UHGV virus genome: UHGV-1806816
Strand: one strand, 5' to 3'
DNA from: a virus
Length of the DNA stretch: 12,763 nt
Part shown: positions 2,590-12,521 of the stretch, piece by piece
Numbering within the stretch: the first letter of the stretch is position 1
How the letters are laid out: each line of letters opens with the position of its first letter
Position numbers and translations under genes: made by a program
Notes under the pieces: generated by a model
The model's input: only the letters and a program-made list of their open reading frames with translations
The model's database searches: none
Told to the model about the DNA's origin: nothing

Positions 2590-3561
2590 TCAGTAATGAA
2601 TTTTCGCGCAGGGGATCAGGTTATCTTTCAGAGCGGTAAGCACTTCGATAGCCTGCTCGCGGGTTAAGCTGGTTTGGCTGGTGAGCGCGTTAACGATGTT
2701 GGTGCCGACCGTCTTGCGGTGCTTAACGTCAGCTTCACGCTTTGCCTGCTCATCGGCGAGGCGCTTCTCTTCGGCCAGGCGGGCATCTTCGGCCTGTTTG
2801 GCCTTCAGGCGCTCGGCTTCAACCGCCGCGGCTTTTTCGCGTTCCGCCCGGGCTTCCGCTTCCTGCTTCTCGCGAGCTGCACGCTGTTCCGCTTCGACGC
2901 GCTGGCGCTCCGCCAGTTCAGCGCGGGCTTTCTCTTCGGCTTCACGGCGCGCTGCGGCTTCAATCTCCGCTTTGTGCTTCGCTTCGGCATCGCGGCGGGC
3001 TTGTTCTGCCGCTTCCTGTTTCAGCCGCTCATCACGTTCACGCTGAGCCTGTTCCGCCAGACGGCGCTGCTCTTCGCGGTCACGGTCAAAATCCTTGTTC
3101 ATCAGTAGAGCCATTTCGTGGTCCGCTTCGAACTTGGCAGCCAGCTCCTGATCGAACCTGATGTTCATCTCCAGCGCTTCGGCGTGCATCGCGTTCATGG
3201 CTTCTTCAGCCTTAATGCGTTCCTGCTCGGCTTCCCATTCGGTGAGTGGGCGGCGGGTCGCATCGCGCAGCTCGTCGCAGGCATCAACGAATCGCTTAAT
3301 TTCGGCCTCAGCCGGACGCACAGCCTCTTTCAGGCGCTTCAGGTACTCACGGCCCGGCTTTTCGATTGCCGTCTTGCTGCGGGACACCTGCGCTGCCAGA
3401 GAGGCAACACGGTCACGGCCTTTCTTCGTGGACAGGTCCGGCACTTCGTTTACAGCCTGGCGGATTTGCTCAAGGTACGCGTCAAGGCCGCCCGCTACGT
3501 AAAGCACTGGGGCCTGTTCCGGCTTGATTTCGATGACAGTTAAGTCCGTTACTTCGCTCAT
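2590..3561 (-). CDS. Hypothetical highly charged coiled-coil protein (323 aa) with a low-complexity Ala/Glu/Arg/Lys-rich central region
   Basis: Strong AGGAG RBS 5 nt upstream of the ATG at 3561. Globular-looking N-terminus (about 100 aa) and C-terminus (...VGTNIVNALTSQTSLTREQAIEVLTALKDNLIPCAKIHY) flank roughly 170 aa of AEQ/RERA-type heptad-like repeats. Overlapping plus-strand ORFs are artefacts of the GC-rich repetitive DNA. Confidence 0.6.
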   Translation of the reverse strand: MSEVTDLTVIEIKPEQAPVLYVAGGLDAYLEQIRQAVNEVPDLSTKKGRDRVASLAAQVSRSKTAIEKPGREYLKRLKEAVRPAEAEIKRFVDACDELRDATRRPLTEWEAEQERIKAEEAMNAMHAEALEMNIRFDQELAAKFEADHEMALLMNKDFDRDREEQRRLAEQAQRERDERLKQEAAEQARRDAEAKHKAEIEAAARREAEEKARAELAERQRVEAEQRAAREKQEAEARAEREKAAAVEAERLKAKQAEDARLAEEKRLADEQAKREADVKHRKTVGTNIVNALTSQTSLTREQAIEVLTALKDNLIPCAKIHY

Positions 3562-3631
3562 GGTTTCTCCTGAAATTTGGATGTGCAGATCCCGCCCGCG
3601 TAATGCCAGGCCGATCGGTTGAATAGGGTGG

Positions 3632-3829
3632 TTACTGCTGCGCGATGGATTTCGCCGGGAACTCGCCGTTGCGGATGATGCTTTCTACCGGCCAGCACTC
3701 AGCTGACACTTTCTGCTCTGTAGCTGCCAGGCTGCATTCCTGCTGGCTGTCGTAAACGCCGAGAATGACATCCTGATAATCACCGTTGGTCATTGCCACG
3801 GTCAGGACGAGTGCGAATAAAGTTTCCAT
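3632..3829 (-). CDS. Hypothetical small protein (65 aa) with a hydrophobic N-terminal segment
   Basis: ATG at 3829..3827 overlaps the TGA of the upstream 42-aa ORF (TGATG). METLFALVLTVAMTNGDYQDV... has a probable signal/membrane-anchor segment. The ORF-track version starts at a GTG (3883) with no RBS. Confidence 0.4.
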   Translation of the reverse strand: METLFALVLTVAMTNGDYQDVILGVYDSQQECSLAATEQKVSAECWPVESIIRNGEFPAKSIAQQ

Positions 3830-3957
3830 CAGTGAAGAGTCCTCCCGATGGCGACGGCGTAAAGGCGTTTTGCTTCTTCCCACGCCGGAGCATTGCGATG
3901 GAGCACCGCGAACGACGCGAGCCGTTGGGCCTCTCTGATCTGCTGCTGGTTTACCAT
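3829..3957 (-). CDS. Hypothetical small protein (42 aa)
   Basis: ATG at 3957..3955 is preceded by AAGAGGAAA with a 3-nt spacer. Translation: MVNQQQIREAQRLASFAVLHRNAPAWEEAKRLYAVAIGRTLH. Coupled to the downstream 65-aa ORF. Sits where lambda has kil/cIII, but no sequence identity is claimed. Confidence 0.35.
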   Translation of the reverse strand: MVNQQQIREAQRLASFAVLHRNAPAWEEAKRLYAVAIGRTLH

Positions 3958-4096
3958 GATTTCCTCTTGGCCTTATCGCGGCGAACGGAACGGTTAATAC
4001 AAGACTTCAACGCATTTATTCAGTGTTTCAATGGGCGGTGGATGGCCGCCGGTTGTCATAAATGGGCAGACTCGAAAATCTGCCTATGTATGGCCG

Positions 4097-4119
4097 ATAA
4101 AAAACCCGCCGGAGCGGGT
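4097..4119 (-). terminator. Putative intrinsic terminator downstream of the 222-aa gene (tL1-like position)
   Basis: On the minus strand: stem ACCCGC / GCGGGT with a 4-nt loop (4119..4104), followed directly by TTTTTTAT. It overlaps the stop codon of the 222-aa gene. Confidence 0.5.
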
Positions 4120-4787
4120 CATTCATTCTTTGGTATGCCGCAAAGGGCGTTTAGCGTTTCAACGGGAATGGCAAGTGCGGTGCTGGTCGCTTCACGGCGT
4201 TCCACCTCAGGCAAATATGGCACTGCCTCAGGCCACATCTCAGCCAGTTTTTTAACAGTTGAGACTTTGGTTAGAGCACCTTTAACCTGCAATTGGAAGG
4301 CATCAACTTCATCGTAAAGAACGTTGATGGTTACCGTCGATTCAGTGAGTCGGTCGTGTAATTTTCCAACTTTCTTCAGCGTGCTGTAACTTTCAGGAAC
4401 GAAACCCGAATCAATTACAGGCGCGAAGGAAGCTCCGAAGAACAGGTCGCTTTCAAGATCGTGCTTACCAATATGTTTTCCACGGTGGCGATAGCGATGA
4501 TCCAAACCGTTCCTGGCTAATTCGTGATACTCACCATTAATAATGACCTTTAAAGTTGCAGTTTTAGCGCCGACCTGCATCTTGATGAAGGAGTTATCTT
4601 TGAAATCTTCCCGAGCCTTAGTTATTTGCTCATCGCTAGTGTTTTCCTGCTTGAGCAATGCCTGTCGAATTTCTTCAACAATTTTCGCCCTCTCATTAAC
4701 CGCAGCTTTCGCTTTCTCAAACAATGGGGATGCGAGAAGCAGGTTATGGCATAGCTGATTTTTAATTTCGTTGTTAAGACGAATCAT
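4119..4787 (-). CDS. Hypothetical protein (222 aa), lower-GC orphan gene; first gene downstream of the OL-like operators
   Basis: ATG at 4787 with GAGGGT 6 nt upstream. About 45% GC against 55-60% in the flanking phage genes. Contains a basic His/Arg cluster (DHRYRHRGKHIGKHD). No recognisable motif; no transmembrane segment; no Arg-rich N-terminus as in N proteins. Confidence 0.7.
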   Translation of the reverse strand: MIRLNNEIKNQLCHNLLLASPLFEKAKAAVNERAKIVEEIRQALLKQENTSDEQITKAREDFKDNSFIKMQVGAKTATLKVIINGEYHELARNGLDHRYRHRGKHIGKHDLESDLFFGASFAPVIDSGFVPESYSTLKKVGKLHDRLTESTVTINVLYDEVDAFQLQVKGALTKVSTVKKLAEMWPEAVPYLPEVERREATSTALAIPVETLNALCGIPKNE

Positions 4788-5203
4788 TGACTTACCCTCT
4801 GTCGTTACCCGCTGATGCGGGAGAAATGCTTTGGCGATGTGGTAGGTGGGAGACCCATTTCGACCCGATTCGGCCTACTTATCTTCGGCAATAGCTCCTC
4901 GGGCCTCGCCGCTTTACGTGCGACATATTCCCGTCCATGAACCCTTCACCACATCCCATAACATTCCCTGTATTGGTCAGCGCCAACTCCCTGCCAGTGT
5001 TGCCCGTTCTCACGCCGTTCTCGCTCTCGCGTGGGGATACTCTCTCACCGACCGGATCGCACCCGGTGATACAGCACGTTTACGTGTAGGGGTCTTAACA
5101 GGTCATTGACGCTGTAAATCTGCATGTTGTTAAAAAGCAGGCGACTTGCTGTCCGCCGCTGGCTAACTTCGCTCAGCTGTCGATGTTTCGTTTCGATGGG
5201 GTA

Positions 5204-5281
5204 AATTTAGCGTGATGCTAAATTATGCGCAATAGCAAAATGCTAAATTGTTGAATGGTTTTATTTAGCGTATTGATTAAT
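5204..5281. promoter_or_regulatory. OL-like operator cluster: three ATTTAGC-N5-GCTAAAT-type inverted repeats (putative pL control region)
   Basis: 5204..5224 is a perfect palindrome AATTTAGC-gtgat-GCTAAATT. Imperfect copies lie at about 5231..5249 (AATAGC-aaaat-GCTAAATT) and 5263..5281 (ATTTAGC-gtatt-GATTAAT). The same half-sites recur in the cI-cro intergenic region. Promoter hexamers could not be placed unambiguously. Confidence 0.5.
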
Positions 5282-5319
5282 AAGCGATTAAAAATTTACA
5301 GCGAAGGAATTCGGGACGT

Positions 5320-5343
5320 AAAAAAGCCCGCGCGATGGCGGGC
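5320..5343 (-). terminator. Putative intrinsic terminator of the repressor gene
   Basis: Stem GCCCGC (5326..5331) / GCGGGC (5338..5343) with a 6-nt loop; on the minus strand it is followed by TTTTTTAC. Lies 21 bp downstream of the cI stop. Confidence 0.6.
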
Positions 5344-5363
5344 TTGAGGGGTTTTGCGTGAGG

Positions 5364-6041
5364 TTATGGGATGTTTAGTATTTTGGCATCAACCACAACG
5401 CCGATGATTTTGCAGTTTCCATTAATTTCTAGCATTGGATATGCGGGGTTAAGGGGCTTTAGGAAGCGTCTGCCGGCATCGATTACAAGCTTCTTAAAGG
5501 TCGCTTCGTTATCGCCTTCTAGCTTCGCGACAACCAGCTTTCCGTTGCGCGGCTCGACTTCAGGATCAACAAGTATCGCTGCTCCCTCGGGTATGCTCAG
5601 TCCAGCCGGGGAGGTCATAGAATCCCCTTTAACGTCCAGCCAGAATGAATCTTCTGAGCAGTCAACAGTCGTGTCATACCAGCGATCTATCGCTCTTCGG
5701 TGATAAGGTTCTACAGCTTCCATCCATTGCCCCGCGCTTACCCAGCTGATTACAGGATAACTTCCTTTTGTCTCGTTCAGTCCTCGAAATGCAACGTTCG
5801 AAGGTTCTTCACTGGCGTGTAAAACATCCATCCAGCCAAAAGGCAGATCAAGCGCAGTTTCAATTTTGCGAGCCATCTTATCGCCGATATTGCGATGAGG
5901 GTTTGGTCCCAGTAGCTGGCTAAGCGCAGCCGGACTTGTCTCGATGAGCTCGGCAAACTGCGCTTTGGTCATTCCAGACTCGTGCTGACGCTTCTCGTAC
6001 AGCGCTTCCAGGTTGGCTTTTCTGATTTCTTTATTTTCCAT
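5364..6041 (-). CDS. CI-like prophage repressor: N-terminal HTH (XRE type) plus C-terminal LexA-like S24 peptidase domain
   Basis: From the ATG at 6041: MENKEIRKANLEALYEKRQHESGMTKAQFAELIETSPAALSQLL... (HTH), then ...FWLDVKGDSMTSPAGLSIPEGAAILVDPEVEPRNGKLVVAKL... (Ser/Lys dyad context of S24 autopeptidases). The ORF-track start at 6158 would run through the operator region and is rejected. Confidence 0.85.
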   Translation of the reverse strand: MENKEIRKANLEALYEKRQHESGMTKAQFAELIETSPAALSQLLGPNPHRNIGDKMARKIETALDLPFGWMDVLHASEEPSNVAFRGLNETKGSYPVISWVSAGQWMEAVEPYHRRAIDRWYDTTVDCSEDSFWLDVKGDSMTSPAGLSIPEGAAILVDPEVEPRNGKLVVAKLEGDNEATFKKLVIDAGRRFLKPLNPAYPMLEINGNCKIIGVVVDAKILNIP

Positions 6042-6058
6042 ACCTGCATTGTTACTGC

Positions 6059-6126
6059 TTTTAGCAAAATGATAAATGTGCAAATTGCTAAATGATGCTT
6101 GCGTAGTATTTAGCATAACGCTAAAC
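6059..6126. promoter_or_regulatory. OR-like operator region between divergent cI-like and cro-like genes
   Basis: Half-sites of the same motif as at OL: TTTTAGC-aaaat-GATAAAT (6059..6077), GCTAAAT (6087..6093) and ATTTAGC-ataac-GCTAAAC (6108..6126). Sits in a 116-bp divergent intergenic region. Confidence 0.55.
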
Positions 6127-6157
6127 TCCAAATCAAACGACTCACCCGGAGACACCA

Positions 6158-6391
6158 ATGAGCACTGAACTACACCGCTGGCGCAAGGCCGCCACTACCG
6201 ACGAATGGGCGCAGCTCGCAAAGTTGGCTAACACGACGCCAGGTTACCTGGACCAGATCGCCTACGGAAATCGCCGGGCATCTCCAGAAATGGCATCTGC
6301 TATCGAGAAAGGCACGAAGAATTTTCACCGCCAGGCTCCGGTCCTAAAAGAAAGCCTGGTATTCGCATCGCCGCGTGATACTGCGGCCTAA
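6158..6391 (+). CDS. Cro-like small HTH regulator (YdaS-type)
   Basis: 77-aa protein, divergent from the repressor and immediately right of the operators. HTH-like segment WAQLAKLANTTPGYLDQIAYGNRRASPEMASAIEKGT. Confidence 0.7.
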   Translation: MSTELHRWRKAATTDEWAQLAKLANTTPGYLDQIAYGNRRASPEMASAIEKGTKNFHRQAPVLKESLVFASPRDTAA

Positions 6392-6408: not shown

Positions 6409-6951
6409 ATGCATTCACTTGCGTATCAACACAATACCGGAATACACCCGGGAGCGATGATAAACCGCGCTCAAGCTAAAGCGACGCCGGACCACGAAAA
6501 GATCCGCGATGCGGTCCGTGCCTGGTCATCGGCGCTGGATAATCAGGACGTGGTGTCAGCGCTGATCATCAACGAATACCGGGAGCAGGGCGGGACCGCC
6601 ATCAGCTTTCCGGACGACATCAGCCGGGCGCGCCAGAAGCTGTTCCGCTTCCTGGATAACCGCTTCGACTCTGAGCAGTACCGCGAGAACGTGCGCCAGC
6701 TGACGCCCGCAATCATGGCCGTTTTGCCGCTGGAGTATCGCCATCGACTTCTTCCAGAGGACAGTTTTATGTCCCGCTTAGCTCGACTTGAGAAAGAAAC
6801 GAGCGAGGCGAAAGTGGCCGTTGCGATGAACGCCCCGCGTCACCAGAAGCTCAAGGAACTCAGTGAGGGGATTGTAGAGATGTTCCGTGTCGACCCGGAT
6901 CTGACCGCGCCGCTGATGGCTATGGTCACTTCGATGTTGGGGGTTATGTGA
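6409..6951 (+). CDS. CII-position regulator, YdaT-like protein (180 aa)
   Basis: Directly downstream of cro with an AAGGGAAA RBS. Position and size match YdaT-family proteins that pair with YdaS-type Cro in Rac-like prophages. Family assignment is from memory of the family, not a search. Confidence 0.5.
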   Translation: MHSLAYQHNTGIHPGAMINRAQAKATPDHEKIRDAVRAWSSALDNQDVVSALIINEYREQGGTAISFPDDISRARQKLFRFLDNRFDSEQYRENVRQLTPAIMAVLPLEYRHRLLPEDSFMSRLARLEKETSEAKVAVAMNAPRHQKLKELSEGIVEMFRVDPDLTAPLMAMVTSMLGVM

Positions 6952-11349: not shown

Positions 11350-11676
11350 ATGAAGTCCAAGAAGCTAAATGCTGAGCAGCAATACAAATTAGACCTTGAA
11401 TTGGTCAAGAAGAAGCCTGCGAACCGGACCGAGGCAAAAGCCCATTTGGCCGCACAGTTACGAATCAGCAAGTACAAGACGCAGACCTCTTCCAAAATCC
11501 GCGTAGGCAGTTTTAAGGGGCGGAAGAAGGTACATTTCAGTAAGGCGGAACAAGCAGCCAGGGCAGCACTAAATAAAGCAAATGCCATTAGATTTTCCGA
11601 AGGGGAGGTCGAGTCCGTCGATACGGATAGAATCTCAGAAAGTAACAAACGCTGGCGCGGGAGAACTGCTGACTAA
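11350..11676 (+). CDS. Hypothetical basic, Lys-rich protein (108 aa from ATG 11350)
   Basis: The ORF-track start at 11332 is a TTG; the first ATG is at 11350. About 47% GC. No recognisable motif. Stop overlaps the start of the next gene (TAATG). Confidence 0.45.
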
Positions 11677-11930
11677 TGTCTGACTGGAATATTGCTGCAA
11701 AGCCGCAGGAAGAACGCGACAAGGTCAACGTTGACCTGGCAGCCTCCGGCGTAGCCTACAAAGAGCGCCTGAACATGCCGGTTATCGCTGAGGTGGTGAT
11801 GCGTGAGCAGCCCGAGCATTTGCGTGATTACTTCCTTGAGCGTCTGAAGTTTTATCGCGAGAAGTCGATAGATTTACCAAGGGCATCCGATCCGCGGTAC
11901 ATGGAAATGGCTGATTCTAATAAAAAATAA
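11676..11930 (+). CDS. Hypothetical protein (84 aa)
   Basis: Translationally coupled to the upstream gene. No recognisable motif. Confidence 0.45.
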
Positions 11931-11981: not shown

Positions 11982-12521
11982 GTGATTAATATCATTGTTG
12001 ATTCCAATGCTTGGAATTTTTTACATGTGAGTGGGATCTCCTTAAGCAACGAGCTTCTTAGCGATTATAACTTTCAGATAACATTAGAGGTGTCTCGTGA
12101 ATTGCAGGAGTTAGTAGGCAAGGAAGGGAAGGAAGCTCTTTATGAATTCTTTGTAAGTGAGACTCAGTCGCTTGAAGAGCCCTTATGCTATTTTGGTTTT
12201 TACAATGAGTCAGTGCCTGCTGATGAACAGCGGTTTGGTGGATTTGGTGTTGGCGGGTTCGCATCTGTTCATCAAGATGATTATTTTCAGAAAACATTCC
12301 GCCAAATAAAATCATCAAAGCGTGGTATTTATTATGGCAATGAAGCTGACATGCTGATCGGGTCAAGAGGAATTGGGAACACTTTCATACTAACAGAAGA
12401 TAATAATAAGTCAGGCCCGATGAAAGAGGCTGAGAACACTATCTTTGTTTCAAGAAAATTTCCTATGACTGTGGAGCAGTTTAAGGAATATCTTGATCTT
12501 GAAACCTCAAAAACTCTTTAG
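11982..12521 (+). CDS. Hypothetical low-GC protein with PIN-like nuclease signature (179 aa)
   Basis: About 40% GC. GTG start with AGGAGG 10 nt upstream. N-terminal beta-strand plus Asp (MINIIVDSNAW), a central acidic residue, and C-terminal ...NEADMLIGSRGIGNTFILTEDNN... follow the PIN / VapC-like pattern (D...E...D.(L/I)IA...G...(I/V)(V/L)T.(D/N)). Assigned by eye, not by search. Confidence 0.45.
   Translation: MINIIVDSNAWNFLHVSGISLSNELLSDYNFQITLEVSRELQELVGKEGKEALYEFFVSETQSLEEPLCYFGFYNESVPADEQRFGGFGVGGFASVHQDDYFQKTFRQIKSSKRGIYYGNEADMLIGSRGIGNTFILTEDNNKSGPMKEAENTIFVSRKFPMTVEQFKEYLDLETSKTL

Follow-up and report, generated by a model that had tools for sequence, protein, structure and literature searches.

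An Nmad5-family gene in an apparent cargo slot behind the early-left promoter of phi80/HK225/Stx-type lambdoid phages

Background

In lambda and P22, the early-left genes that follow N (ral, ea10, sieB, and gene 17) are non-essential and exchangeable, and several of them modulate host restriction or exclusion; in lysogens, sieB is expressed, and so is rexAB. In phi80 (JX871397), the position behind the early-left promoter pL is annotated as "N" (PHI80_45), followed by the intrinsic terminator tL1A. Here, we describe the same position in the virus genome UHGV-1806816 (12,763 nucleotides; the whole stretch analyzed is referred to as the window), where the first credible open reading frame (ORF) after the left operators (OL), ca. 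420 nt downstream of OL/pL, encodes a protein of 222 amino acids (aa) on the minus strand. The original prediction for this gene, made from the letters alone, portrayed it as an orphan and as either a novel superinfection-exclusion or abortive-infection effector or an unconventional regulator replacing N. We consider it close to certain that the gene is a member of the Nmad5 family and a cargo of an exchangeable slot. Like the accessory genes of lambda and P22, it is exchangeable and close to pL; unlike them, it is the first ORF, its slot is bounded on both sides by conserved sequence, and it should not be expressed in the lysogen as sieB and rexAB are. Those genes have no sequence or fold relation to Nmad5.

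The Nmad5 family has been described in virulent phages of the genus Dhillonvirus, in which a K-to-E change in the protein led to escape from the Tmn defense system, a deletion of nmad5 gave no such escape and still left a phage that propagated, and attempts to clone the gene failed, apparently owing to toxicity (PMC11846954). In M6-like phages, Nmad5 lies upstream of the polymerase and beside thymidine-hypermodification genes, its neighbors being genes for an aGPT-Pplase, a kinase, a radical-SAM protein, and a pyridoxal phosphate (PLP)-dependent enzyme (PMC9476957).

Results

The 222-aa protein is a further instance of a known, functionally uncharacterised phage family. It matches PF18757 ("nucleotide modification associated domain 5", Nmad5) over its full length (residues 2-219 against positions 1-206 of the 206-position profile) with 108.5 bits, the curated cut-off being 27 bits (E=6e-31), as well as phrog_1965 (E=1.8e-49), and in eight complete E. 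coli genomes RefSeq applies the label "Nmad5 family putative nucleotide modification protein" to identical or 99%-identical proteins. The gene is thus neither an orphan without a recognizable motif nor novel, as had been claimed, given that Pfam, PHROG, and RefSeq have already catalogued the family. A HMMER search of the full library yielded 132 cluster representatives of Nmad5, mostly of ca. 200 aa. The NCBIfam scan of the protein gave zero matches, the PDB sequence profile search returned nothing under E=0.5, the related-locus scans that started from P0011, P0045, and P0081 found no matches, and a single locus was recovered in the scan of species-representative genomes. Among 5426 complete E. 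coli genomes, the gene is present in eight (all copies ≥99% identical) and its flanks in ca. 620, i.e., relatives are polymorphic for its presence.

The flanks of the gene are shared with phages that carry other genes between them. In the direction of transcription, the features of this region are:

4788-4834, minus strand: conserved linker with a hairpin, CCCGC-AUCA-GCGGG (4821-4808), and the ribosome-binding site (RBS) AGAGGG (4800-4795)
4119-4787, minus strand: Nmad5-family coding sequence, 222 aa, ATG start, the sole cargo-specific segment
4093-4120, minus strand: intrinsic terminator (tL1-like) from the terminator scan, stem 4120-4103 and T-run 4102-4097, overlapping the TGA stop
4062-4090, minus strand: second conserved hairpin, GGCAGAUU...AGUCUGCC, at about 4086-4065, after the terminator
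3962-4061, minus strand: conserved downstream junction, whose phi80 equivalent lies between tL1A and tL1B

The window is 99.5% identical to phi80 across 4791-5204, a stretch that begins at the pL -10 element, takes in the annotated nutL, and stops 3 nt short of the N start codon; the downstream junction (3962-4061) is 99% identical to phi80, and its 4030-4061 part is 100% identical to the Klebsiella phage KO-TP1. Between these shared flanks, phi80 carries "N" (98 aa) and the window carries Nmad5, in both cases followed by an intrinsic terminator. The phi80 protein (4245-4541 in locus L001) is one of many slot cargos; it belongs to phrog_25091, has no Pfam family, and is unrelated to Nmad5. In KO-TP1, these junctions enclose a gene of 65 aa. 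The slot of HK225 and of E. coli NCTC9040 contains a gene of phrog_5305 (70 aa), which in NCTC9040, a strain with the same cI, is followed by Nmad5. The RBS linker (45 nt) is 92-100% identical (nearly all copies 97-100%) upstream of every Nmad5 copy, phi80 N, and KO-TP1 gp28, and in HK225 it is found downstream of the 70-aa gene.

Using an invariant hairpin of the pL leader (described below) as an anchor, we gathered at least 120 loci from IMG/VR and scored the families of the first ORF in 103 non-identical loci and the junctions in 98 non-identical leader-bearing loci. Over 15 unrelated families supply the first ORF after the leader, among them the 70-aa gene in 12 loci, an 82-aa gene in 11, Nmad5 in seven, and phi80 N in four, many of the remainder being small and without a Pfam match. 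One cargo (in L206) is a 381-aa RelA/SpoT protein that matches the PADLOC candidate PDC-S33. The linker was found in 68 and the downstream junction in 79 of the 98 loci; both are present in 66, where they enclose 238-1102 bp. The layout at the downstream end was common to all 32 distinct cassette ends, i.e., stop codon, a terminator of either of two types, CATAC, second hairpin, and junction, with the second hairpin occurring in at least five sequence variants, each of which folds. The terminator behind Nmad5, with its 7-bp G+C-rich stem and TTTTTT, has the form ACCCGC-NNNN-GCGGGTTTTTT and is found in identical form behind unrelated cargos of 303-541 bp.

The RBS and the terminator belong to the slot, since they recur unchanged around unrelated cargos, and given that the linker, terminator, and second hairpin are shared, essentially the ORF alone is exchanged. 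A delimitation of the cassette as 4062-4790, i.e., the gene with its "own" terminator, was revised, the terminator and second hairpin being common to other cargos. The compact unit with an RBS and a terminator of its own that had been proposed therefore stands as far as the existence of both signals is concerned, but not in their assignment to the gene. The proposal that the position is an exchangeable cargo site was upheld by the replacement of phi80 N, the different contents of KO-TP1, HK225, and NCTC9040, and the bracketed inserts. Judging from these sequence comparisons, the slot of phi80/HK225/Stx-type lambdoid phages is one that takes many alternative single-ORF cargos.

The ATG start of the Nmad5 gene, 7 nt after the RBS, is backed by the M-x-R-L-T/N N-terminus found family-wide, and the interval between OL and the gene contains no ORF with family support. 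The gene has a GC content of 45.1% (45.3% at third codon positions, GC3), against 54-60% (GC3 63-73%) in the other early-left genes, so that the composition is non-uniform also on exact calculation; the window as a whole is a mosaic in this respect (cI 47.8% GC, ORF 11982-12521 38.9% GC). The protein has an isoelectric point (pI) of 7.07 (family median 6.85), with 31 lysines and arginines against 31 aspartates and glutamates, and a net charge of 0 across residues 1-62, without an Arg-rich N-terminus. The ORF, length, low GC, RBS, terminator over the stop, and first place after OL/pL were all reproduced as originally given, as was the absence of an Arg-rich N-terminus. A DNA-mimic function of the Ocr, ArdA, or Gam type was considered and rejected for the protein, which is not strongly acidic. 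The promoter scan of 3500-6300 found no promoter-like site, but it is insensitive, having also missed pL itself.

Conservation within the family is concentrated in two parts, the motif R-L-T/N at the N-terminus and, at the C-terminus, the module T-V-K-K-L-x-x-x-W-P-E ... L-N-x-x-C-G-I-P; the family-wide form of the latter (W-P-E ... L-N-x-x-x-G-x-P) and the R-L-T/N motif are both present in the window protein. In an alignment of 61 sequences, only W185, P186, and N213 are invariant, while T177, L181, P193, L212, G217, and P219 reach a conservation of at least 90%. In the AlphaFold2 model, which is confident (pLDDT 86.5, pTM 0.81), a long helical hairpin is accompanied by a beta-hairpin, small helices at the C-terminus, and a basic loop of low confidence. 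We found no solved structural relative of this model, and a search of BFVD returned almost solely family members or unnamed proteins, with one weak row (E=0.023) annotated as DNA polymerase A. The alignment contains no conserved catalytic residues and the model no enzyme-like fold; given that just three residues are invariant and that the model is confident, this suggests a non-enzymatic protein, with no sign of catalysis.

The Dhillonvirus Nmad5 proteins (SM_S22 CDS6 and SM_A8 CDS7) belong to the same Pfam and PHROG families and share ca. 27% full-length identity and the C-terminal motif with the window protein, whose subfamily has an additional basic loop, RYRHRGKHIGKH (residues 98-109). The residue changed in the Tmn-escape mutant corresponds in the alignment to K180 of the window protein, which falls within the conserved motif next to the invariant W185-P186. 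The SM_S22 gene (CDS0006, 4764-5768 in locus L011) is annotated with 334 aa, but its start is probably M81 (MRLTKDIKNQ...), matching the family N-terminus; given this offset of 80 aa, K296E in SM_S22 and K216E in SM_A8 are one and the same escape mutation. Unlike the window gene, the Dhillonvirus gene resides in a virulent phage, antisense within the head module and outside a repressor-controlled pL.

Nmad5 has many members in virulent phages (of Dhillonvirus, Guernseyvirinae, and Eiauvirus), and we distinguished about a dozen independent contexts. Some are early or DNA-metabolism regions, i.e., lambdoid early-left operons, a PolA module, Guernseyvirinae (in the order Nmad5, exonuclease, SSB (single-stranded DNA-binding)/annealing protein, DNA polymerase), eiAU (after the helicase-primase), and the M6 cluster; in others, Nmad5 stands alone in head, packaging, or tail modules, e.g., between terminase and portal in ZRG1 and in the tail module of a Vibrio phage. 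In PTXU04, the gene adjoins a DNA methyltransferase gene. The PolA module has the order DUF2800 nuclease, Enc34-type SSB, Nmad5, PolA in 22 loci, which form one lineage and are not independent observations. Within this lineage, the median identity of Nmad5 is 83%, against 93% for the adjacent PolA and 94% for the SSB, i.e., Nmad5 evolves faster. In several loci, N-type proteins precede Nmad5 homologues by one to three genes. The homologue in L004 is directly downstream of an N_peptide protein (E=2e-13), lambda-N-like proteins are found upstream in L079, L080, and L091, short ORFs rich in arginine-rich motifs (ARM) in L094 and L096 (spotted by visual inspection or a weak BLAST match), and phi80-N-like proteins (60-64% identity) directly upstream in L080 and L088. 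The lambda-N-like match in L080 is weak (17 residues, E=7e-4) and lies two genes above the phi80-N homologue.

The leader RNA that precedes the slot is conserved, and together with the immunity region it comprises the following features:

5324-6116, minus strand: cI-like LexA/S24 repressor (gene 5364-6116, Peptidase_S24 and HTH_3 domains) with its own terminator (5345-5324)
5204-5281, no strand assigned: OL, three 19-bp ATTTAGC-N5-GCTAAAT operators (5205-5281), repeat families D1/D2, inverted repeats matching the right operators (OR)
5127-5157, minus strand: hairpin and rrn-type boxA TGCTTTTTAACAA (boxA 5139-5127; "nutL boxA" in phi80), the sole such boxA in the window
4990-5102, minus strand: structured leader RNA domain of ca. 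113 nt, a closing helix around three hairpins

OR has three matching operators at 6059-6126, cro lies at 6158-6391, and RefSeq annotates the repressor as a 250-aa LexA family protein. By the phi80 annotation, pL would have its -35 element, TTGCGC, at 5232-5227 and its -10 element, TAAATT, at 5209-5204, giving a leader of ca. 410 nt. The cII position of the window (6409-6951, plus strand) is taken by a YdaT_toxin-domain protein (PF06254, E=7e-27) of 180 aa, whose phi80 homologue is annotated as cII. Of the three leader hairpins, one is boxB-like with an A-rich loop (5086-5075, the "nutL core" of phi80), one is invariant (CACCGGGYGCGAUCCGGUCGGUG, 5069-5045), and one is variable (about 5033-5011). 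RNAalifold predicts 22 pairs from 20 diverse leader copies, seven of them with compensatory changes and 97.5% of the cells paired; none of 500 shuffles equaled the observed values, and slid controls reached at most 2. Rfam has no family for this RNA, and its weak matches (isrK at 4099-4155 with 21 against 50 bits, AgvB, Trp leader, and mir-43) were dismissed as chance or terminator-driven.

As in lambda nut and HK022 put, a boxA and a structured RNA stand just after pL and before a terminator. However, the distance from boxA to the boxB-like hairpin is ca. 40 nt (5127 to 5086) against ca. 8 in lambda nut, and the ca. 113-nt multi-hairpin domain is unlike either. No similarity was found between the leader and the 24000-32000 part of the HK022 record, which should contain the immunity region, and the window contains neither a second leader copy nor a nutR-type boxA on the pR side. 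The leader occurs in at least 120 IMG/VR loci, phi80, HK225, Stx2a phages, and ca. 620 of the 5426 complete E. coli genomes (ca. 11%). In the Stx2a phages, it follows cI and a restriction-modification-like gene pair and precedes a 215-aa ORF (Rha-like by eye) and then kil. In one of them, Stx2_140166 (3568-5987 in locus L003), the pair between cI and the leader consists of ORFs of 317 and 489 aa, restriction endonuclease- and DNA methyltransferase-like by eye, and occupies the position of rexAB.

Discussion

Given the immediate-early hypervariable slot, the dispensability and apparent toxicity of a homologue, the non-enzymatic predicted fold, and a Tmn-escape mutation within the conserved motif, we tentatively favor, at somewhat less than an even chance, the interpretation that Nmad5 is an immediate-early, non-enzymatic accessory for host interference or counter-defense. 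Once the repressor leaves OL, pL would fire and Nmad5, by the layout of the operon, would be its first product and, with the terminator directly behind the gene, probably also its most abundant one, ahead of the delayed-early genes. The modeled non-enzymatic scaffold (long helical hairpin, small beta-hairpin, and basic loop) would present the conserved C-terminal module, which may serve as a binding surface that acts on a host or defense component early in lytic growth, possibly protecting phage DNA replication or recombination. The unrelated genomic positions of the gene and its faster evolution than its PolA and SSB neighbors support its autonomy. Several points weigh against this interpretation. 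The Tmn link comes from a single study, which does not thereby demonstrate inhibition by wild-type Nmad5 (PMC11846954). The RelA/SpoT cargo indicates that slot cargos need not all be counter-defense genes. Expression would be from pL only, but the promoter scan was too insensitive to argue against an internal promoter. Lastly, some 50% of the independent contexts are modules of DNA replication or recombination, and a replication accessory would suit these just as well.

The main rival is a dedicated accessory of phage DNA replication or recombination, e.g., an adaptor that bridges or loads SSB, annealing protein, exonuclease, or polymerase, which we regard as possible but distinctly less probable. 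The gene heads an operon with GamL, RecT/Bet, and YqaJ/Exo in the window (its neighbors there include DUF1482, a 323-aa coiled-coil protein, GamL, RecT, the YqaJ exonuclease, cI, and cro), and the PolA-module order, Guernseyvirinae, eiAU, and the M6-like phages (PMC9476957) provide similar surroundings. Yet Nmad5 is also found in head, tail, and packaging modules, the Dhillonvirus deletion mutant propagated (PMC11846954), most phages that share these Gam/Bet/Exo genes, phi80 and KO-TP1 among them, do without Nmad5, and it is one among many unrelated cargos of the slot. The 22 PolA-module loci were not accepted as independent support, owing to their single lineage. It is improbable, in our view, that the protein serves a DNA base-modification pathway as an accessory subunit. 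Such a role would be consistent with the name given to the family by Pfam and RefSeq, the hypermodification genes of the M6-like phages (PMC9476957), and the methyltransferase of PTXU04; however, no modification enzyme was found among the 19 other window proteins scanned against Pfam, the protein lacks conserved catalytic residues and an enzyme-like fold, and most contexts are without modification genes. The M6-like neighborhood is also a replication module, so that the name may rest on proximity alone.

We consider it highly improbable that Nmad5 substitutes for N, i.e., that it is an unconventional antiterminator or regulator carrying pL transcription past the terminator behind it. It does replace the annotated phi80 N exactly, with boxA and the boxB-like nutL kept at 99.5% identity, no N-like ORF was found anywhere in the window, and an intrinsic terminator follows the gene. 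By the yardstick for N-type proteins (an N-terminal Arg-rich motif, about 80-130 aa, and a match to PF25694, N_peptide), the 222-aa protein is too long, has no ARM, and does not match PF25694 at E≤1; its homologues coexist with N_peptide, lambda-N-like, and phi80-N-like proteins just upstream, and virulent phages commonly carry the family. Since over 15 first genes of unrelated families share the leader and the terminator, read-through should not depend on the cargo, and a regulator replacing N is unlikely. The presence of phi80-N-like proteins upstream of Nmad5 in L080 and L088 also means that the two are not alternatives in general, and the status of phi80 "N" as an analogue of N looks doubtful. 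We give equally little credence to the other half of the original proposal, a superinfection-exclusion or abortive-infection effector that guards the lysogen. A low-GC, rare, and exchangeable cargo beside the immunity region would suit such a function, as would the apparent toxicity of the homologue (PMC11846954) and the PADLOC candidate among the other cargos. The protein, however, matches none of 5027 PADLOC models at E≤1, and the gene has no detectable promoter of its own (in the insensitive scan); with its position downstream of OL/pL, it is expected to be under repression in the lysogen. Most family members are found in virulent phages, and the Dhillonvirus Nmad5 belongs to the attacking phage (PMC11846954).

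The leader offers a broader explanation, in which its RNA would antiterminate, whether by itself in the manner of HK022 put or together with a factor whose gene lies elsewhere, N as first gene would be dispensable, the slot would be an undescribed one, and Nmad5 would represent a structurally novel class of effectors. As a joint reading of cargo slot, leader antitermination, and Nmad5 as an immediate-early effector of counter-defense or host takeover, we hold this to be rather unlikely in its entirety.

Other genes of the window are of interest in their own right. The ORF at 11982-12521 (plus strand, 179 aa) has the lowest GC in the window (GC3 37%) and no Pfam or PADLOC match; as a candidate for a true orphan moron, it surpasses the Nmad5 gene. 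At 11676-11930 (plus strand), we found a phage-encoded homologue of the theta subunit of DNA polymerase III (PF06440, E=1e-34), resembling the HOT protein of phage P1. The DUF1482 gene (ATG start, 3632-3829) is preceded in frame by a GTG-initiated Arg-rich extension, MGRSKTPLRRRHRED..., at 3830-3883 (minus strand); the start used in RefSeq is the ATG, not the GTG. The 323-aa Glu/Arg/Ala-rich coiled-coil protein (2590-3561, minus strand; phrog_1376, no Pfam match) is homologous to the phi80 "agt/Mog, anti-toxin for Gam" and accompanies Nmad5 in nearly all lambdoid loci, though it also occurs without it.

Conclusions

The assignment of the gene to Nmad5 is routine, and more interest attaches to the architecture of the slot and to the leader RNA. 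The "nucleotide modification" name is unsupported by fold, conserved residues, and most contexts, and may mislead annotation. Nmad5 is widespread in phages, and with the window it is now known from an E. coli prophage amenable to genetics, where it is the first gene of a repressor-controlled pL. The slot and the structured leader suggest that many E. coli prophages, including Stx phages, arrange early-left transcription unlike lambda, and the presence of the leader in ca. 11% of complete E. coli genomes bears on prophage induction and on the control of early genes in toxin phages.

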